Positions 45,574-56,955 of a stretch of 64,000 bases of DNA are shown piece after piece. The DNA lies in the IMG/VR virus record IMGVR_UViG_3300042301_003774, positions 7,518-71,517 of that record; one strand, written 5' to 3'. Source of the DNA: a virus. Position numbers and translations under genes: made by a program. The first letter of the stretch is position 1; each line of letters opens with the position of its first letter. A model generated the notes under the pieces. That model searched no databases. It was not told where the DNA came from and worked only from the letters and a program-made list of their open reading frames with translations.

Positions 45574-46116
45574 TTATTTTTTATTAAAAAATGCTTTATT
45601 AATTAAAGACTCGCAGGTCTTCTTTATTGCTGACGATAGTGCTTGTTGATTTACTTTATCACTACCTTCGTCTGTTATTAATGTCGATGTTGAAATCTCT
45701 GAGCTAGATTCTTCGGCAACAACTTCCTTAAGTTTTTTACCAGACTTATCACTCAACTTACCCCTCATTACCACCAACGTTTCTTCAACATCAGAATGGA
45801 ATACGGAGATATTTCGTTTAGTTTTATTTACATCAAAGTATAGTATTTCCGCACTAAAGATTAAATCAGCTGATTTTGCGTCTTCAACAATTATAAAATC
45901 TTTATCTTGTAATATTTCCTGGAAAATGTTTTTAGCACCAAAAGCTAAACTTCTATTATTAGTTAGTTTACCAATTTTGATGTTATTTTCTACCCCAGAA
46001 ATGTATACCGCCTTTGTTTCCTGTAAAGGATCTACGATGTAAGAATACATCCCAAAAAACCCTAATACCACAAAAATGGGTATCAGAGACACATTTAGTC
46101 TATTATTATTTGCCAT
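45574..46116 (-). CDS. membrane-anchored CsgG/LptE-like protein
   Basis: N-terminal TM; LAFGAKNI.QEIL and NQQALSSAIKK parallel to 37007..37726. Confidence 0.45.
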   Translation of the reverse strand: MANNNRLNVSLIPIFVVLGFFGMYSYIVDPLQETKAVYISGVENNIKIGKLTNNRSLAFGAKNIFQEILQDKDFIIVEDAKSADLIFSAEILYFDVNKTKRNISVFHSDVEETLVVMRGKLSDKSGKKLKEVVAEESSSEISTSTLITDEGSDKVNQQALSSAIKKTCESLINKAFFNKK

Positions 46117-46241
46117 AACAATAAATATCGTCAAGGCAATTTGAAGGCCAATATTTACTAAAATATAAGGTAAATCATTAATTTATTAAAAAAAAATAAT
46201 TTTATTTTTTAAGTTTTCTTGATTATATACATATTTATTGG

Positions 46242-46249
46242 TATCTTTG
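46242..46249 (+). promoter_or_regulatory. Bacteroidota-type -7 promoter element for leader 1 / tRNA array 1
   Basis: TATCTTTG = TAnnTTTG consensus. Confidence 0.6.
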
Positions 46250-46277
46250 TAAAAGAAAAAAGATAAAACTAAATTCA

Positions 46278-46376
46278 ATGAGACAATTTACACATACAAT
46301 GTCGTTTACAATCTGTTCAAAATGGGCGGATGAGCGCGCTATGCATAATAGTCTCGGAGATGTTGTATTAAGTTAA
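46278..46376 (+). CDS. attenuator leader peptide 1 (32 aa)
   Basis: MRQFTHTMSFTICSKWADERAMHNSLGDVVLS; codons match array-1 tRNAs; 3' part overlaps an antiterminator strand. Confidence 0.75.
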   Translation: MRQFTHTMSFTICSKWADERAMHNSLGDVVLS

Positions 46377-46400
46377 AAGTAGATTTTAACTAAAAATATT

Positions 46401-46438
46401 AAAACCCTGAGACTTAAAAATCTCGGGGTTTTTTGTTT
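46401..46438 (+). terminator. conditional intrinsic terminator before tRNA array 1
   Basis: AAAACCCTGAGA/TCTCGGGGTTTT stem plus U-tract; 5' arm CTGAGACT can instead pair with AGTCTCGG (46350-46357). Confidence 0.8.
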
Positions 46439-46440
46439 AT

Positions 46441-46510
46441 GGGCCGGATGTCAATGGCAGACCACCTGATTTGCAATCAGAGTGAATGGGTTCGATTCCC
46501 AACGTGTCCA
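46441..46510 (+). tRNA. tRNA-Ala(TGC), imperfect acceptor stem
   Basis: Loop TTTGCAA, G3:U70, T-loop TTCGATT. Confidence 0.7.
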
Positions 46511-46516
46511 CAGAAT

Positions 46517-46590
46517 TGGAATATAGCTCAGTTGGTTAGAGCGTCATCCTGATACGGTGAATGTCGATGGTTCGAGTCCATCTATTCCAA
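46517..46590 (+). tRNA. tRNA-Ile(GAT)
   Basis: Cloverleaf, loop CTGATAC. Confidence 0.9.
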
Positions 46591-46595
46591 CATAA

Positions 46596-46668
46596 GGAAT
46601 TTTTGTATAGCTGGTGCGTACGTCGGACTGAAAATCCGAAGGAACAAGTTCGATTCTTGTAGATTCCA
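46596..46668 (+). tRNA. tRNA-Phe(GAA)
   Basis: Cloverleaf, loop CTGAAAA. Confidence 0.88.
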
Positions 46669-46674
46669 CATAAT

Positions 46675-46748
46675 GATCTCGTAGCTCAGCTGGATAGAGC
46701 ACCTCACTTTTAATGAGGGAGTCAATGGTTCGAGTCCATTCGGGATCA
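46675..46748 (+). tRNA. tRNA-Lys(TTT)
   Basis: Cloverleaf, loop CTTTTAA. Confidence 0.92.
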
Positions 46749-46754
46749 CAACAC

Positions 46755-46825
46755 ACGGGTATGGTGCAACGGTAGCATACGGGTCTCCAAAACCTTTGAT
46801 GGAAGTTCGAATCTTTCTATCCGTG
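46755..46825 (+). tRNA. tRNA-Trp(CCA)
   Basis: Cloverleaf, loop CTCCAAA. Confidence 0.88.
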
Positions 46826-46846
46826 CAAAATTTTAAAAATAAAAAA

Positions 46847-47272
46847 ATGGAAAATAATGAATTAGGGTATAAGTTAAAAATAGATGCTCAACTTATACAA
46901 GTCCGAGAGGAAAGAAAAAAAAGGATAAAAGAATATTGGGAAAATTTACCCAAAATCAATACGCCTGTGGATGTACCTGAATTACCTCAAGTAGATATTC
47001 AAGAATGGAAAGAGTATTATGTCCCAAAACTAATTGAAGCTGGTGCTATTCCTAAAAAAGATTTGGTTGTTGGTCAAATTTATATTGGTGAACATAGGAG
47101 AGCTAGGGTTGCTAAATGGAATGGAGAACAATTTGTTTATAACAGGGAAAAATTTGGAAATGTCTTTGAAGATAAATGCAACCATTTTGAAGATGATGAT
47201 GGGTTCGCATTATTTGTTCCAATAAGAATTGGCACCGAAGAAGAGTTTAATAAAAATGGTCTCATAGTTTAA
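46847..47272 (+). CDS. hypothetical protein inside tRNA array 1
   Basis: 141-aa ORF from ATG 46847; stop lies within tRNA-Arg. Confidence 0.6.
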   Translation: MENNELGYKLKIDAQLIQVREERKKRIKEYWENLPKINTPVDVPELPQVDIQEWKEYYVPKLIEAGAIPKKDLVVGQIYIGEHRRARVAKWNGEQFVYNREKFGNVFEDKCNHFEDDDGFALFVPIRIGTEEEFNKNGLIV

Positions 47273-47328
47273 TGGAAAAACGTCTCGCTACGGACGAGAT
47301 GATTGAGGTTCGAATCCTTGTGAGATCT
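47258..47328 (+). tRNA. tRNA-Arg(ACG)
   Basis: Cloverleaf, loop CTACGGA. Confidence 0.88.
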
Positions 47329-47335
47329 CTTATTA

Positions 47336-47405
47336 GGTCAGTTTGGTCGTGGAGGCCAGTTAGTCTGCAAAACTAACGGAGTTGGTTCGATTCCAACATT
47401 GACCT
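47336..47405 (+). tRNA. tRNA-Cys(GCA)
   Basis: Cloverleaf, loop CTGCAAA, U73. Confidence 0.85.
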
Positions 47406-47407
47406 CT

Positions 47408-47483
47408 GTGTTTATGGTGTTAATGGTTAGCATGACAGATTGTGGTTCTGTTGGTATGGGTTCAAATCCCATTAAACACCCCA
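47408..47483 (+). tRNA. tRNA-His(GTG)
   Basis: Loop TTGTGGT, C73, encoded CCA. Confidence 0.88.
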
Positions 47484-47488
47484 TATAT

Positions 47489-47563
47489 TGCGGGATGCGT
47501 AGAAAATGGTTATCTCATCGGTCTCATAAGCCGAGGTTCTGGGTTCGAGTCCCAGTCCCGCAA
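47489..47563 (+). tRNA. tRNA-Met(CAT)
   Basis: Loop CTCATAA, paired U1-A72, atypical D arm. Confidence 0.75.
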
Positions 47564-47626
47564 CAAAAAATATGTCTGAATAATTTTTTTATTCGATTTA
47601 TTTATTTATTTTTGTTGAAGATATAT

Positions 47627-47698
47627 CGCGAGATAGAGCAGCGGTAGCTCGGAAGGCTCATAACCTTTAGGTCGGGGGTTCGATTCCCTCTCTCGCAA
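47627..47698 (+). tRNA. initiator-type tRNA-fMet(CAT)
   Basis: C1xA72 mismatch, loop CTCATAA. Confidence 0.82.
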
Positions 47699-47700
47699 CA

Positions 47701-47883
47701 ATAGGTGAAGACTGTGGTGGAAGCCCACGGTATATGAGTCCCTAAAAGCTGTCTTGATTCGCGGTATCAAAGCGGTGCGGGTAGAGTAACATATAAGTCG
47801 GGAGTAATTAACCAATTGACGAAAATGTAACCGCCGGTTAGAGATAATCGGTTATGATGTTCAAATGCGAACGAAAAACCTAT
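47701..47883 (+). ncRNA. unknown structured RNA
   Basis: ATAGGT/ACCTAT closing stem, several hairpins, GGAGTAATTAACC motif. Confidence 0.45.
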
Positions 47884-47887
47884 AAAC

Positions 47888-47959
47888 GGTCCTGTAGTTA
47901 ATCGGCTATAACGCCGCCCTGTCACGGCGGTATGCCGGGTTCGATTCCCGGTGGGACCG
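47888..47959 (+). tRNA. tRNA-Asp(GTC)
   Basis: Cloverleaf, loop CTGTCAC, G73. Confidence 0.92.
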
Positions 47960-47960
47960 C

Positions 47961-48174
47961 AATGAGTAAGAGATACTCGGTAGTCTTTCATCCAAGACTC
48001 ATTTAACAATGGATGGGGATAAAAAATTTCCACCTACGGAATTTCGATTTGGAATAATGGTAGCAAGGTTCAGCACCACCAACGTATTGAACTGACTTTT
48101 TAATCGGGGATGCCCAGCAGGTTTTTCAAACAGTAAAAACCGATATAACTACTCACAGACAATCTCGCTGTGGG
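47961..48174 (+). ncRNA. unknown structured RNA with possible pseudoknot
   Basis: Multiple hairpins; loop TCATCC complementary to GGATGG. Confidence 0.4.
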
Positions 48175-48180
48175 ACAATT

Positions 48181-48266
48181 GGAAGGATGGCAGAGTTGGT
48201 CTATCGCGCTGGTCTTGAAAACCAGAGCTCTGAAAGGGGCCGTGGGTTCGAATCCTACTCCTTCCG
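48181..48266 (+). tRNA. tRNA-Ser(TGA)
   Basis: Long variable arm, loop CTTGAAA, G73. Confidence 0.92.
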
Positions 48267-48267
48267 C

Positions 48268-48406
48268 TAATCACAAATAAAAATGTGAGTTATAATAAAA
48301 TAGCCAATTATAAGCCAACATAAAGTTGTTGGGTACAGACGGAGTAATTAACCGGAGTATAACGCAACAATTGTGATATTATAACAAATACCCATTTGAG
48401 TGATTA
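48268..48406 (+). ncRNA. unknown structured RNA
   Basis: TAATCAC/GTGATTA closing stem, second GGAGTAATTAACC motif. Confidence 0.4.
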
Positions 48407-48409
48407 TTT

Positions 48410-48481
48410 GGCCCGTTCGACTATCGGTTAGGTCGTCAGGTTTTCATCCTGGAAAGAGGGGTTCGATTCCCCTACGGGCTA
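48410..48481 (+). tRNA. tRNA-Glu(TTC)
   Basis: Cloverleaf, loop TTTTCAT. Confidence 0.92.
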
Positions 48482-48496
48482 CTAAACATTATTAGT

Positions 48497-48703
48497 ATGA
48501 AGAAGATTGTTTTATTATTAATTGTTGCGATCTCAATGTGTGGTTGTATTGTGATGCCAAGTAGGTTATCAATTCATGAAAAAAGATTATGGATACACCA
48601 AAATCAACCAAGACAATATTACTATAAAACACATCCAAGATTTCAAGAAAGAATAAAAAGAGGTAAAATTTACACACCTTATTTTAGACCTGGTAGATAT
48701 TAA
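48497..48703 (+). CDS. small putative lipoprotein
   Basis: MKKIVLLLIVAISMCGC signal/lipobox. Confidence 0.55.
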   Translation: MKKIVLLLIVAISMCGCIVMPSRLSIHEKRLWIHQNQPRQYYYKTHPRFQERIKRGKIYTPYFRPGRY

Positions 48704-48764
48704 AATAAAAAAATATTTACAATTAAAATAAACTTTTGTAAATTTACGTATACTTATTACAACG

Positions 48765-48875
48765 ATGACGAATATAAATAACATATTAACGCTTAGTACT
48801 AGACCCCTTAACAATGGTAATGGGTATGGTGTGCAACCGTTATATTGCTTATGTTCGGATCTTATAGAGATGTAA
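48765..48875 (+). CDS. attenuator leader peptide 2 (36 aa)
   Basis: MTNINNILTLSTRPLNNGNGYGVQPLYCLCSDLIEM; codons 2-27 all belong to array-2 tRNA codon families. Confidence 0.78.
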   Translation: MTNINNILTLSTRPLNNGNGYGVQPLYCLCSDLIEM

Positions 48876-48897
48876 AAAATTTTTACGATTATAAATG

Positions 48898-48938
48898 AAG
48901 CCCGAACAAATTAAAAAAATGTTCGGGCTTTTTGTTTT
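48898..48938 (+). terminator. conditional intrinsic terminator before tRNA array 2
   Basis: AAGCCCGAACA/TGTTCGGGCTT stem plus U-tract; CCGAACA can instead pair with TGTTCGG (48852-48858). Confidence 0.8.
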
Positions 48939-48968
48939 CTAATATTTTATCTCTATATTTGAAACATA

Positions 48969-48979
48969 GTTCTTTGACA
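48969..48979 (+). promoter_or_regulatory. boxA-like antitermination element
   Basis: GTTCTTTGACA resembles rrn boxA; similar elements at 54482 and 56941. Confidence 0.5.
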
Positions 48980-48995
48980 TGATGAAAAGCCAAAT

Positions 48996-49079
48996 GCCTG
49001 GGTGATGGAATGGTAGACATGACAGACTTAAAATCTGTTGGGCAAATCGCTCGTGCGGGTTCGACTCCCGCCCTAGGTA
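48996..49079 (+). tRNA. tRNA-Leu(TAA)
   Basis: Long variable arm, loop CTTAAAA. Confidence 0.92.
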
Positions 49080-49083
49080 CAAT

Positions 49084-49157
49084 GGTTCCATAGCTCAATT
49101 GGATAGAGCAACACACTTCTAATGTGTAGGTTTCAGGTTCGACTCCTGATGGAATCA
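49084..49157 (+). tRNA. tRNA-Arg(TCT)
   Basis: Cloverleaf, loop CTTCTAA. Confidence 0.92.
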
Positions 49158-49158
49158 C

Positions 49159-49298
49159 AAAGATAATGGTCTGATGTTATTATGATTGTCGACAAATCAT
49201 GGTAGCTCTTAAACAGACAGCACCCTCTGCCGATGCATCGTAAAACTATTACTAAGCAGTTAAGATTGGAACGAGACGGGTATTCCAACATTATCTTT
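49159..49298 (+). ncRNA. unknown structured RNA
   Basis: 10-bp closing stem AAAGATAATG/CATTATCTTT, multi-way junction, possible TCTTAA/TTAAGA pseudoknot. Confidence 0.5.
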
Positions 49299-49303
49299 AT
49301 TTT

Positions 49304-49377
49304 CGGGATATAGCGTAGTCCGGTATCGCGCTTGGTTTGGGACCAAGAGGTCGTAGGTTCGAATCCTGCTATCCCGA
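49304..49377 (+). tRNA. tRNA-Pro(TGG)
   Basis: Cloverleaf, loop TTTGGGA. Confidence 0.92.
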
Positions 49378-49384
49378 CATTATT

Positions 49385-49458
49385 GCCTTCTTAGCTCAGT
49401 TGGTTAGAGCAACGCACTGTTAATGCGTGGGTTCCTGGTTCGAGTCCAGGAGAGGGCG
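49385..49458 (+). tRNA. tRNA-Asn(GTT)
   Basis: Cloverleaf, loop CTGTTAA. Confidence 0.92.
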
Positions 49459-49465
49459 CAACAAT

Positions 49466-49546
49466 GCCCTGGTGGTGGAATTGGTAGACACACTAGATTT
49501 AGGATCTAGCGCGAAAGTATTGAGGGTTCGAGTCCCTCCTAGGGTA
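49466..49546 (+). tRNA. tRNA-Leu(TAG)
   Basis: Loop TTTAGGA, long variable arm. Confidence 0.92.
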
Positions 49547-49555
49547 CAATAAATT

Positions 49556-49636
49556 GGGAGTATCGCATAGTGGCAATTGCAGAAGACTGTAAATCTTCCC
49601 TCATCGAGTTCAGTGGTTCGAGTCCACTTACTCCCA
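49556..49636 (+). tRNA. tRNA-Tyr(GTA)
   Basis: Loop CTGTAAA, long variable arm. Confidence 0.92.
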
Positions 49637-49642
49637 CAATTT

Positions 49643-49719
49643 GGACTTGTAGCTCAGTTGGTTAGAGCACTTCACTCATAATGAATAGGTCCCTGGTTCG
49701 AGCCCAGGCTGGTCCACCA
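49643..49719 (+). tRNA. tRNA(CAT), probably Ile2 (lysidine; reads AUA)
   Basis: Ile-like body (GGACTTG-TAGCTCAGTTGGTTAGAGC), loop CTCATAA, encoded CCA; ATA codons in leader 2 are consistent. Confidence 0.75.
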
Positions 49720-49722
49720 AAT

Positions 49723-49795
49723 AGAAGATTAGCTCAGTTGGGAGAGCGCTTGTCTTACATGCAAGATGTCACTGGTTCGATTCCAGTATCTTCTA
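49723..49795 (+). tRNA. tRNA-Val(TAC)
   Basis: Cloverleaf, loop CTTACAT. Confidence 0.92.
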
Positions 49796-49800
49796 CAATT

Positions 49801-49873
49801 GCCTCCATAGCTCAGTTGGTAGAGCAGCTGATTTGTAATCAGCAGGTCGTTGGTTCGAGCCCGACTGGAGGCT
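49801..49873 (+). tRNA. tRNA-Thr(TGT)
   Basis: Cloverleaf, loop TTTGTAA. Confidence 0.93.
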
Positions 49874-49925
49874 CGATGGGTCTGAGGGAGTCCCGAAAAG
49901 GTATAAATAACCTGTCCCTCTCCAA

Positions 49926-49998
49926 GCGAAAGTAGCTCAGTCGGTAGAGCATTACCTTGCCAAGGTAAGGGTCGCGAGTTCGAATCTCGTCTTTCGCT
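49926..49998 (+). tRNA. tRNA-Gly(GCC)
   Basis: Cloverleaf, loop TTGCCAA, U73. Confidence 0.93.
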
Positions 49999-50046
49999 CT
50001 TAGAGGTACTTCCAAGTTTTTTTAATATTTGGAAGTATTTATAGAT

Positions 50047-50478
50047 ATGAAAACAAAAATATGCCCTAAATGTGAAATTGAATTACCGTTAAATGACGAA
50101 CATTTCGCATCAAGATATGATAGAAAAGAAAAAATGTTTCAACATATCTGTAGAAAATGTCAGAGTGAATATAGAAAAACTCATTATGAAAAAAATAAAC
50201 AAAAATATATTGATAAAGCTAAAGTCTTTACTAAATCAATGGTTGAATGGTTTATTGAATATAAAAAAACATTAAAATGTGTCGAATGTGGTGAAGATAG
50301 ATATTGGGTTTTAGATTTTCACCATAGAGACCCTAAAGAAAAAGATATCGAGGTTTCTACTTTAATTAGAAGGGGTAGTAAAAGTAAAATATTAAATGAA
50401 ATTGAAAAATGTGACGTTCTATGTTCTAATTGTCATAGGGATTTACATTTTAAAGAAAATAATGCGGATTTCGCCTAG
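50047..50478 (+). CDS. HNH endonuclease (putative homing endonuclease)
   Basis: CxxC pairs, LDFHHRDP..K...EIEKCDVLCSNCHR HNH motif; lies between two tRNA-Gly genes. Confidence 0.85.
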   Translation: MKTKICPKCEIELPLNDEHFASRYDRKEKMFQHICRKCQSEYRKTHYEKNKQKYIDKAKVFTKSMVEWFIEYKKTLKCVECGEDRYWVLDFHHRDPKEKDIEVSTLIRRGSKSKILNEIEKCDVLCSNCHRDLHFKENNADFA

Positions 50479-50537
50479 TTGGTATGGCATCACACTTCCA
50501 ATGTGAAATAGGATCGGTTCGAGCCCGATAATCCGCT
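50464..50537 (+). tRNA. tRNA-Gly(TCC)
   Basis: Cloverleaf, loop CTTCCAA. Confidence 0.9.
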
Positions 50538-50542
50538 CATTA

Positions 50543-50613
50543 TGTCCTTTGGTGTAACGGTAGCACAACTGTTTTTGGTGCAGTTTGTTTAGGTTCGAAT
50601 CCTAAAGGGACAA
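50543..50613 (+). tRNA. tRNA-Gln(TTG)
   Basis: U1-A72, loop TTTTGGT. Confidence 0.9.
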
Positions 50614-50617
50614 CAAT

Positions 50618-50707
50618 AGAGAGTTACCCAAGTTGGTGAAGGGGTCTGTTTGCTAAACAGATAGGTCGGGTTAAACCGGCGCAAGGGTTCGAGCCCCTTA
50701 CTCTCTA
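50618..50707 (+). tRNA. tRNA-Ser(GCT)
   Basis: Loop TTGCTAA, long variable arm. Confidence 0.9.
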
Positions 50708-50711
50708 CATA

Positions 50712-50860
50712 CTGTAGTGTGACGAAATTGGCAAACGTGCCCTCCTGTCTCGGGGGCGGTGACAAAGAAATAGATTAGTAATATGGGGTAGACCACCAGC
50801 CGGCCGGCGTAATGTTACTAATTGAATCTCACCTTGGTGGTTCGAATCCATCCGCTACAG
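50712..50860 (+). ncRNA. tRNA-like RNA (GTC anticodon position) with ~80-nt variable arm
   Basis: 8-bp acceptor CTGTAGTG/CGCTACAG, D and T arms intact, loop CTGTCTC, very large structured variable region. Confidence 0.7.
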
Positions 50861-50894
50861 CATTTATAAAATAAACTAAGTAAAATGAAATGAA

Positions 50895-51356
50895 ATGAAA
50901 CAATTTAAAACACTTCACGGAATTGTGATTCCGAACTTGATTGAATATGTTAGGGAATACATATCAACAAGGGAGAACGTAGAAATTCTTATTGGTTCTG
51001 ACTCACAATGTTATAGCCATAAAAAAACCGTGTATGGTGTTGTAATTGCTTTATACACTCCTGGAAAGGGGGCACACGTTTTATGTAATCGTGAAACATT
51101 ACCGATGGAATATAATACACCGTCTAGATTATTAAATGAAGTTTGGAGATCGATTGAAATTGCTGAATGGATGAAAGAAAACGGTTTACCAAAAGCAACA
51201 TATATTGATATTGATTTAAATCCAGATCCAAAGTACAAATCAAACGCTGTATTAAGACAAGCTGTTGGTTTAGTTGAAGGTATGGGGTATAAAGTTAGAT
51301 ATAAACATTTCGGTGCTTTAACAACATACGCAGCTAATCAACTAGTTCGAATTTAA
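50895..51356 (+). CDS. RNase H-like YkuK family protein
   Basis: ILIGSDSQ, RLLNEVWRSIEIA, IDIDLN motifs. Confidence 0.75.
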   Translation: MKQFKTLHGIVIPNLIEYVREYISTRENVEILIGSDSQCYSHKKTVYGVVIALYTPGKGAHVLCNRETLPMEYNTPSRLLNEVWRSIEIAEWMKENGLPKATYIDIDLNPDPKYKSNAVLRQAVGLVEGMGYKVRYKHFGALTTYAANQLVRI

Positions 51357-51375
51357 AGGTATTTATAGTTAACAT

Positions 51376-52230
51376 ATGCATATAAACATACCCGAATATA
51401 AATTAAGTATTATTGTACCACATAAATCTGGTAATACTATAATATACTCAACTATAGTAGAAATTCTGGAATTAAATTCAATTGAATTTAATAACACATC
51501 TAATAATGATGAGTTAGAAGAAAATTGTTTTTTATTTGTAAGAAACCCTATAGATAGATTTTTCTCATCATATAATTGGTATGCAAAGGTTAAAAGATTA
51601 TTTGATGTTGATAGATTGGACAGTCTAACAGCAGATCAATTATCCCTGATGGACGAATCGTTAAAAATATTTGGTGATTTAGAAATTGATTCATTACAAA
51701 AATTTATTGAAAAGTATAGGATTTTTATAAATAATTCAACTGATACCCATTTTTTACCGCAAAGTTCTTTTTTTTTAAAAAGAAATGGTGATAAAGGAAT
51801 GAGAGCAAATTTAAATCTTAATATTAGAAAAGAGTACGACGCTAGGTTTGAAAATCGAAACTATAAATTTTTTAGAGTTGAGGACATTAGCGATACCATA
51901 AAATTAAATAAAAGTTTATTAATGAGTCGGGGTATAACAAACTTTGGTATACATAAAAAAGATAATGTTAGTAAGGTCGACCTAAAAACATTTCCCTTTC
52001 TAAAAGATTTTCCAAAAAACACTGACCATTTATTTATGGTTTTTCATGCTTATTTTAATGATTTTTTATCTGAATATCATCATTCAAAAAACCCTAATTA
52101 CTATTATAATGAAATTACTGTTAATGATTATATAACGGTATGTAACATGTTTAAAAAAGAATGTGTTTTTTTTGGCTATGATGACGAGCCGAATTTAAAC
52201 AATATTGAATTCAAAAGAAACACGATTTAA
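51376..52230 (+). CDS. sulfotransferase family 2-like protein
   Basis: PHKSGNT, FVRNPIDRFFSSY, HFLPQ motifs. Confidence 0.65.
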   Translation: MHINIPEYKLSIIVPHKSGNTIIYSTIVEILELNSIEFNNTSNNDELEENCFLFVRNPIDRFFSSYNWYAKVKRLFDVDRLDSLTADQLSLMDESLKIFGDLEIDSLQKFIEKYRIFINNSTDTHFLPQSSFFLKRNGDKGMRANLNLNIRKEYDARFENRNYKFFRVEDISDTIKLNKSLLMSRGITNFGIHKKDNVSKVDLKTFPFLKDFPKNTDHLFMVFHAYFNDFLSEYHHSKNPNYYYNEITVNDYITVCNMFKKECVFFGYDDEPNLNNIEFKRNTI

Positions 52231-54474: not shown

Positions 54475-54500
54475 TAATTTAGTTCTTTAAAATAATATTA

Positions 54501-56911: not shown

Positions 56912-56955
56912 TTTGTGTTTATATTTATATCTTTGCAAGAGTTCTTTAAAATAAT

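Follow-up and report, generated by a model that had tools for sequence, protein, structure and literature searches.

The stretch of DNA considered here (hereafter the window) is 64 kilobases (kb) long, has a G+C content of 32%, and is taken out of a 71.5-kb IMG/VR virus record (IMGVR_UViG_3300042301_003774; CheckV completeness 21%); the element in question is a short open reading frame (ORF), with an adjoining hairpin, that stands directly ahead of a cluster of transfer RNA (tRNA) genes. The ARAGORN program finds 24 tRNA genes and one transfer-messenger RNA (tmRNA) in the window, to which Rfam models add two weak extra tRNAs, a tRNA-Ala(UGC) at 46441-46510 and a third CAU tRNA at 47496-47563. 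The tRNA genes fall into two arrays of the same orientation. Array 1 (46441-48482) carries Ala, Ile-gat, Phe, Lys, Trp, Arg-acg, Cys, His, two CAU, Asp, Ser-tga and Glu, while array 2 (48996-50708) holds 13 tRNAs by ARAGORN in the order Leu-taa, Arg-tct, Pro-tgg, Asn-gtt, Leu-tag, Tyr-gta, cat, Val-tac, Thr-tgt, Gly-gcc, Gly-tcc, Gln-ttg and Ser-gct, with an HNH-like ORF (50029-50478) inserted among them. Between the arrays lie a lipoprotein-like ORF of 68 amino acids and the leader 2 cassette, whose features, like array 2 itself, are all on the plus strand: a promoter-like box (48739-48746), leader ORF 2 (48765-48875; 36 codons and a stop, reading MTNINNILTLSTRPLNNGNGYGVQPLYCLCSDLIEM), a hairpin with a T-rich tail (48897-48937), a second promoter-like box, TATATTTG (48954-48961), and a motif, GTTCTTTGACAT (48969-48980), that ends 15 nucleotides ahead of tRNA-Leu(taa). 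A companion, leader 1, with its own terminator (46278-46432, plus strand), precedes array 1, the tRNA-Ala at 46441 being the next gene.

The content of leader ORF 2 is unusual. Codons 2-14 read ACG AAT ATA AAT AAC ATA TTA ACG CTT AGT ACT AGA CCC, and codons 15-27 read CTT AAC AAT GGT AAT GGG TAT GGT GTG CAA CCG TTA TAT. The initial annotation of this DNA had claimed that all 26 of these codons belong to families served by array 2, that every one of the 13 families is represented, and that no codon of array 1 occurs before codon 28; when the ORF was read in the window, all three statements held. The 26 codons (48768-48845, here the sensing block) are drawn from array-2 families without exception, the set of 13 is already complete within codons 2-24, and the first outsider is the TGC at codon 28. 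Under the codon usage of the phage, in which array-2 families make up a share of 0.509 (17,911 codons from 61 long ORFs of the window), the chance of 26 out of 26 is 0.509^26, or 2.3e-8; if ATA is not counted as an array-2 codon, the run shortens to 20 codons and the chance rises to 5.3e-7. For orientation, ATA accounts for about 31% of isoleucine codons in the phage genes, and CGN for about 21% of arginine codons.

No frame of the 64 kb holds a longer run than these 26 codons, the second longest among all six frames reaching 21, and none of 100 windows simulated from a second-order Markov model attained 26 (maximum 21). Only 12 of 35,271 stop-free windows of 26 codons hold all 13 families, and the eight of those that were listed start at 48771-48795, all inside leader ORF 2. 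These figures bear on the plainest of the alternatives, namely that a chance ORF happens to lie beside an ordinary terminator of the upstream unit (array 1 and the 68-amino-acid ORF), or that the ORF makes a small peptide with a function of its own. That the terminator is of a plain intrinsic type, that a complement as long as the seven bases described below turns up in eight of 200 shuffled sequences, and that the peptide is conserved among relatives would all fit such an account. A chance ORF was nevertheless rejected on the run probabilities, which come to 2e-8 and 1e-8 for the two leaders, and on the rank of the run within the window; a functional micro-peptide was rejected on the split between isoacceptors, on a hexamer that is conserved across reading frames, and on compensatory changes in a helix, each of which is taken up below. 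Altogether this explanation is regarded as very improbable.

The assignment of codons to arrays depends on two decoding assumptions. The first is that the CAU tRNA at 49643 is tRNA-Ile2, the reader of ATA, since the array-2 assignment of ATA presumes that identity. The gene is 75% identical to the phage tRNA-Ile(gat), whereas the two remaining CAU tRNAs reach 60-61% identity to it, a contrast that suggests the Ile2 identity; of those two, one shows a C1-A72 mismatch and has homologues with a GGG/CCC anticodon stem. We take such features, and the C1-A72 mismatch as the sign of an initiator in particular, to be valid guides for telling CAU tRNAs apart. Genes similar to the one at 49643 are annotated as tRNA-Met in other records, and that annotation is indecisive because tRNA-Met is the annotators' default label for any CAU anticodon. 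The second assumption is that tRNAs with U34 read all four codons of a box, on which the counting of CTT, ACT and CCC as array-2 codons depends. As to the two weak genes of array 1, both fall below the default ARAGORN threshold, the tRNA-Ala(UGC) having a G3:U70 pair and acceptor-stem mismatches and the third CAU tRNA (47489-47563 span) an odd D arm; once both are counted, all 20 amino acids are served by phage tRNAs.

Downstream of the ORF, and ahead of array 2, lies an intrinsic terminator (terminator 2, 48897-48937) that consists of a GC-rich hairpin of 12 base pairs and a T-run, with a folding energy of -17.5 kcal/mol and a loop of 11 bases; a simple terminator scan with a loop limit of 8 misses it. 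Its 5' arm (region 3, 48897-48908) reads GAAGCCCGAACA, and its 3' arm with the T-rich tail (region 4, 48920-48937) reads TGTTCGGGCTTT. Near the end of the ORF, region 2 (48849-48858, TTATGTTCGG) offers an alternative partner for region 3: the pairing of TGTTCGG (48852-48858) with CCGAACA (48902-48908) that the initial annotation had proposed was recovered both in the sequence and in the folds, as were its extensions by TTATA (48862-48866) with TATAA (48890-48894) and by TGTAAAA (48871-48877) with TTTTACG (48881-48887). The predicted antiterminator comprises the TGTTCGG pairing and these two inner helices, which come from the folds (48862-48894) and hold the stop codon (48873-48875), and it has an energy of -12.9 kcal/mol. 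Given how often shuffled sequences reach seven bases, the complement by itself is weak evidence, and the same test on single sequences is weak as well, no perfect stem being found in the relative L046.

An additional helix, absent from the initial annotation, was found in the minimum-energy fold of the whole leader. In it, region 1, CGAATATAA, at the start of the ORF, pairs with region 2 over nine base pairs (CGAAUAUAA at 48769-48777 with UUAUGUUCG at 48849-48857), so that an apparent anti-antiterminator overlaps the putatively translated region and region 2 can be bound by either region 1 or region 3. With this helix, the predicted folds complete a switch of the trp type, in which the pairings 1:2, 2:3 and 3:4 are mutually exclusive. 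For nascent RNA extending to 48912, the calculated energies of the two competing states are close, at -27.0 kcal/mol for the 2:3 state versus about -25.8 kcal/mol for the 1:2 state (the latter by subtraction). The last codon that is unique within the checklist (Gln, 48834-48836) lies 16 nucleotides ahead of the first paired base of region 2, a distance of approximately one ribosome half-footprint.

Relatives of the locus were retrieved with the RNase H-like gene (Pfam PF04308) that adjoins array 2. This yielded 80 loci of 52-90% identity from uncultured phages of very large size, the longest contig measuring 334 kb; a DNA search of cultured phages with 48400-49100 matched only tRNA genes, and a protein search for a cultured close relative with the RNase H-like gene gave nothing above 36% identity. 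Words sampled from the sequence, which comes from a giant phage of lake water, recur in environmental data: half of them or more are present in each of 15 lake-water DNA runs, and a share of just 0.05-0.08 in five RNA or possibly-RNA runs. Leader 2, together with a terminator of the form CCCG(A/G)AC...TTCGGG, is present in 35 of the 80 loci, corresponding to 23 distinct sequences, and the alignment used below therefore contains 24 rows (the window and these 23 relatives). Decayed variants were noted at L039:8262-8428 and L029:4739-4901.

Absence of the ORF from relatives was one of the outcomes that the initial annotation had named as refuting its reading, and the 23 distinct relatives do keep the ORF. 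Its ATG is invariant in all 24 sequences; of the 28 gap runs within it, 26 have a length divisible by three, the remaining two being single-base gaps in L019 and L023 that adjoin region 2; and within the close clade the third codon position has an entropy of 0.54 bits, versus 0.29-0.31 for the first two. Such a combination of gaps and third-position variation is, to judge from the alignment, that of a translated frame. The stop codon follows region 2 by 0-6 codons in every one of the 24 sequences, which would leave a terminating ribosome on or against region 2. At the level of RNA, the CCCG(A/G)AC terminator arm is present in all 23 relatives, and the seven base pairs of the 2:3 helix are 95.8% paired over the 24 sequences, as compared to 7-57% when the partner is slid. 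The hexamer GTTCGG is invariant throughout, including in L019 and L023, where the frame reads GTT CGG in place of the xGT TCG G found elsewhere; its preservation across reading frames points to selection acting on the RNA. The 1:2 helix is less uniform (76.6% of cells paired, versus 21-47% with the partner slid), and it is here that covariation is seen: three pairs change on both sides (UA in 12 rows and AU in 8; AU in 11 and GC in 9; AU in 8, GC in 6, CG in 1 and UA in 1), amounting to 26 cells, a score reached by none of 500 shuffles.

The cassette has a companion in which the same arrangement is mirrored for the other array. In the leader 1 ORF (46278-46376), codons 10-23 hold all 12 of the array-1 families, with an exact probability of 1e-8, and of the 10 windows in which 12 families occur within 20 codons, the eight listed all lie in this ORF. 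Leader 1 was recovered in 15 distinct relatives. Its region 2 tracks two variants of the terminator arm, being AGTCTCAG or AGTCTCGG where the arm is CTGAGACT, and TCCCGAGG or TCTCGAGG where the arm is CCTCGGGA; the contiguous complement, counted within the strict terminator arm, measures 8-9 nucleotides in seven rows (the L032/L035 and L038 clades) and 4-7 in the other nine. Terminator 1 (46401-46432) ends 6 nucleotides before tRNA-Ala in the window, and 5-7 nucleotides before it in 11 of 16 rows, a gap in which no promoter lies; array 1 is therefore accessible by read-through only.

The relationship between the codons of each leader and the location of the corresponding tRNA genes was then compared across the 15 genomes that have both leaders, counting codons before region 2 and setting aside those that depend on a CAU tRNA. 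The tRNA sets were the union of ARAGORN calls at default and -ps90 settings (in the window, -ps90 adds only tRNA-Ala, the third CAU tRNA and one tmRNA artefact). In leader 2, 302 codons correspond to a tRNA in the leader's own array, 47 to one in the other array and 3 to both, with 14 for which no tRNA was found; in leader 1 the corresponding numbers are 271, 39, 1 and 7, and some of the cells without a tRNA may reflect missed genes. The partition extends to isoacceptors of one amino acid. For isoleucine, the ratio of ATA to ATY is 29:1 in leader 2 and 3:31 in leader 1; for arginine, AGR to CGN is 15:0 and 8:17, all eight of the AGR codons in leader 1 being at codon 2; and for serine, AGY to TCN is 15:12 and 1:34. 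Neither the function of a peptide nor the sensing of amino acids would be expected to produce a split of this kind.

Where tRNA genes have changed places, the codons have for the most part changed with them. In L023, L032 and L035 the Asp tRNA is in array 2, and GAT appears in leader 2 while leader 1 is without Asp codons; the remaining 12 genomes show the reverse pattern, apart from an Asp codon in L044 that precedes region 2 by two codons. L023 has a relocated Glu tRNA as well, and GAA/GAG occur in its leader 2 only. Ser(tga) is in array 2 in L032 and L035, which have two TCN codons in leader 2 and none in leader 1, as against 2-4 TCN codons in leader 1 of the other 13 genomes. In L019 the Gln tRNA belongs to array 1, and CTA in leader 2 replaces the CAA of the window; array 1 likewise houses the Thr and Val tRNAs of L038 and L044-47, where leader 2 is devoid of Thr codons and leader 1 gains a Val codon. 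Roughly nine separate events of relocation or partition can be distinguished, in most of which codons and tRNA genes agree, two or three lagging behind. The regulatory codons of leader 2 are thus cognate to the tRNA supply encoded downstream, both in the window (26 of 26 codons, 13 of 13 families) and as the arrays change in relatives.

More distant relatives extend this correspondence to single arrays. Where one leader precedes one array, it covers 22 of 22 downstream families in L057, 22 of 23 in L073, 22 of 22 in L076 and 24 of 24 in L081. In the L059 clade, the Leu-taa, Thr and two Gly tRNAs are upstream of the leader and 19-20 families are downstream, of which the leader covers 18-20; Gly or Leu-TTR codons occur there only in the last five codons, which pair with the terminator. 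The leader-1-like ORFs with 20-24 families were located at L081:4588-4792, L073:7047-7241, L076:4241-4421 and L059:7952-8103; the leaders of distant relatives precede nearly complete single arrays, and several share a ...DTDVG tail. The distribution of these forms suggests that a single leader with all codons was ancestral and was later split in two.

These observations are best accommodated, with a probability that we place at roughly three in four, if leader 2 is a ribosome-mediated transcription attenuator that carries a one-of-each isoacceptor checklist ahead of a tRNA array. Sequence and comparison establish the ORF, its codon match, its conservation and the three alternative pairings as predicted structures, and the relatives lend support to the attenuator proposed in the initial annotation through the promoter box, the invariant ATG and frame, the terminator, the covariation of the 1:2 helix and the tracking of codons with tRNA genes. 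We infer from these the translation of the ORF, the direction of the switch, and the passage of a share of array-2 transcription through the leader.

According to this proposal, transcription would start near the box at 48739-48746, and the 36-codon ORF would be translated at once. When the sensing block is decoded promptly, the ribosome would cross region 2 on its way to the stop codon at 48873; with region 2 covered, region 3 would pair with region 4, and transcription would terminate at the T-run (48929-48937). A ribosome that waits at any checklist codon for a missing tRNA would instead cover region 1 and leave region 2 free, such that the 2:3 pairing would form before region 4 exists and the polymerase would continue through tRNA-Leu(taa) and the genes that follow it in array 2. 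If the leader is not translated at all, the 1:2 pairing would form and the terminator would follow. The product of read-through would be the very set of tRNAs whose shortage had caused the stall, and the loop would close upon itself. On this basis, array-2 tRNAs are probably made in greater amounts when ribosomes read their codons slowly.

The nature of the signal is a separate matter. The leader might be a general gauge of translation, responding to antibiotics, damage or amino-acid starvation rather than to one tRNA or another, and its polarity might even be reversed. The mechanism could not distinguish an absent tRNA from an uncharged one, and single codons, to go by the trp and his leaders, would be weak sensors of mild starvation. 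Furthermore, a tRNA array in Anabaena is induced by general translational stress, as described in PMC8421152. What such a gauge would not produce is the separation of ATA from ATY, AGR from CGN and AGY from TCN, which does not follow from amino acids or from overall speed, and the partition of codons between two leaders, together with its re-partition in relatives, points the same way; we therefore consider this explanation quite improbable. For the attenuator with its checklist, the signal would then be a shortage of particular tRNAs rather than generally slow translation. The trp and his leaders use runs of codons, and single codons are weak sensors of mild starvation; because each family here has only one to a few codons, the design would seem better suited to registering the complete disappearance of a tRNA species than a slight shortage of amino acids. 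A more far-reaching proposal, which we advance tentatively and with somewhat less than even confidence, is that large phages keep their tRNA genes under such closed-loop control, the terminator opening upon the loss of any isoacceptor on the list, and that the leaders are sensors of defences that target tRNAs, their lists co-evolving and splitting along with the arrays. If so, the tRNA loss in question might come from host anticodon nucleases or from phage-induced decay of host tRNAs.

How much of array 2 is expressed through the leader depends on the promoter-like elements on either side of the terminator. Upstream, the box TAAATTTA (48739-48746) is one mismatch from TAnnTTTG, which we take to be the -7 promoter element of Bacteroidota, and an exact TAnnTTTG lies 17-25 nucleotides ahead of the leader 2 ATG in 21 of 24 rows and 26-34 nucleotides ahead of the leader 1 ATG in all 16 rows; the short ORF is thus preceded by what resembles a promoter of its own. 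A consensus scan for sigma-70-like sites gave 18 hits versus 21.6 in shuffled sequences, with no excess, and the host type presumably uses promoters of another kind. Downstream, the caveat raised in the initial annotation stands, in that TATATTTG resembles a host-type -7 element and might act as a leader-independent promoter; of the 24 rows, 17 have an exact TAnnTTTG in the interval from terminator 2 to the first tRNA, and 7 lack it. A motif of the form (G/A)TCTTTGACAT is more constant, occurring after terminator 2 in 23-24 of 24 rows. Further copies in the window, each with one mismatch to this form, are at 54482-54493 and 56941-56952, and the three copies, together GTTCTTT(G/A)A(C/A)AT, precede tRNA-Leu(taa), an array of structured RNAs and the tmRNA, respectively, the copy at 56941 being 15 nucleotides before the last of these. 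Over all loci the strand that carries the RNA genes has 99 distinct hits and the opposite strand 27; 59 of the 99 have the start of a tRNA or tmRNA within 40 nucleotides, and the distances in relatives peak at 14 nucleotides for tRNAs and at 3-5 for tmRNA. The motif is accordingly a candidate for either a promoter variant of stable RNA genes or a processing signal. Should it act as a promoter, array 2 would have a route that is independent of the leader, and the attenuator would add a regulated component.

From these elements arises the principal competing account, in which array 2 is driven mainly by TATATTTG and GTTCTTTGACAT beyond the terminator, and the leader supplies a supplementary boost under stress or else ends the array-1 transcript with a regulated leak. 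The constancy of the motif, its fixed distances from tRNA and tmRNA genes, and the locus L006 (3500-3595), which keeps terminator 2 and the downstream motif without a leader ORF, are what such an account would lead one to expect. It leaves unexplained, however, why the checklist should be exact and should change with the array; leader 1 has no room for an element of this type in the 6 nucleotides between its terminator and tRNA-Ala; and the motif could equally well be an RNA processing signal. We judge this account unlikely, though less so than the other alternatives.

Several observations weigh against the attenuator with its checklist, beginning with two from the preceding paragraphs: array 2 may be transcribed independently of the leader by way of the TATATTTG and TCTTTGACAT elements, and L006 dispenses with the leader ORF. 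Conversely, L039-43 and L029 keep a full leader ahead of arrays of only 4-5 tRNAs. Five of the seven pairs in the core of the 2:3 helix are invariant, such that there is no covariation to count in it, and at equilibrium the terminator (-17.5 kcal/mol) beats the antiterminator (-12.9 kcal/mol), so that the switch must be kinetic. The codon lists, moreover, are not without exceptions. Leader 1 of the window contains AGA, CAA and three Thr codons; in most relatives a lysine codon (AAG/AAA) directly follows the start codon of leader 2; leader 2 of L007, L032 and L035 has 1-3 Thr codons while Thr(tgt) is found in array 1 only; the L038 clade retains one Val codon in leader 2; and 1-2 TCN codons occur in the leader 2 of seven genomes whose Ser(tga) is in array 1. 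Finally, the counts across relatives are not phylogenetically independent.

Additional features of the region deserve brief description. The 68-amino-acid ORF (48497-48703), situated between tRNA-Glu and leader 2, has a lipoprotein-like signal (MKKIVLLLIVAISMCGC...) and gave no match in a Pfam scan; it is missing from some relatives, and in L003 only 57 nucleotides separate tRNA-Glu from the leader ATG. The HNH-like ORF, with CxxC pairs and the sequence ...CSNCHRDLH, stands between Gly-gcc and Gly-tcc, and its Pfam match is weak. Two of the spacers between tRNA genes in array 1 (47700-47887 and 48268-48409) have a sequence in common, GGAGTAATTAACC, and gave no match in an Rfam scan; they may correspond to small RNAs that are freed by tRNA processing. 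The phage tmRNA (56956-57362) encodes the tag GNVYNNMEVAGLLATTKVAA, and relatives keep related tags.

The manner in which phages regulate the tRNA genes they carry is largely unknown, and it bears on the question of why they carry them at all, for which the candidate reasons are the matching of codon usage and the replacement of host tRNAs that have been degraded or cleaved by defence systems. Were the proposal for leader 2 to prove correct, this would be the first known case of attenuation acting on tRNA genes and the most multivalent attenuator on record, its list running to 13 families here and to as many as 24 in relatives; it would also constitute a natural read-out of the tRNA pool that resolves isoacceptors of one amino acid. 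The family would further illustrate the co-evolution of a regulatory peptide with a gene array, and its logic might serve elsewhere as a compact gauge of decoding capacity. An account of leader-peptide control of tRNA genes was not encountered in the full-text literature, subscription journals and supplements being outside the scope of that search.

Among published systems, the functionally nearest appears to be the L-array (trn operon) of Anabaena sp. PCC 7120, a normally silent set of approximately 23-26 tRNA genes (PMC8421152; PMC10272220). Like array 2, it is an accessory tRNA array, and it remains off until translation is impaired (PMC8421152). Unlike leader 2, the Anabaena operon is controlled by the repressor TrcR, acting at direct repeats over the promoter (PMC8421152), and in the main text of that article 'attenuat-', 'leader' and 'terminator' each occur zero times.

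A second point of comparison is the T-box, found with synthetase and amino-acid genes, in which the state of a tRNA likewise decides between terminator and antiterminator. A T-box makes direct contact with one uncharged tRNA by means of a specifier codon, and no translation is involved, whereas here a translated ORF would do the reading. A T-box riboswitch was rejected as an explanation of this locus, as an Rfam scan of 45800-51500 at E <= 1 contained no T-box match; apart from tRNAs, that scan gave only weak matches at the level of chance.

The closest resemblance in mechanism is to the leaders of amino-acid operons, including trpL, hisL, leuL and pheL and the multivalent thrL and ilvGMEDA leaders. 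Like the device predicted here, these consist of a promoter, a short translated ORF with regulatory codons and an intrinsic terminator; they rely on exclusive 1:2, 2:3 and 3:4 pairings, have a stop codon near region 2, and control a product that relieves the stall. The present element differs from such leader-peptide attenuators of amino-acid operons (for example, PMC1183508) in that the regulated genes are tRNAs rather than enzymes and that it resides on a phage. Where those leaders have runs of codons for 1-3 amino acids, leader 2 has one-of-each codons for 13 families, a number that rises to as many as 24 in relatives; these codons discriminate between isoacceptors of one amino acid, and a promoter-like motif follows the terminator. 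By the features that could be tested here, the predicted device belongs with the leader-peptide attenuators, to which it would add a tRNA target and a checklist of isoacceptors.

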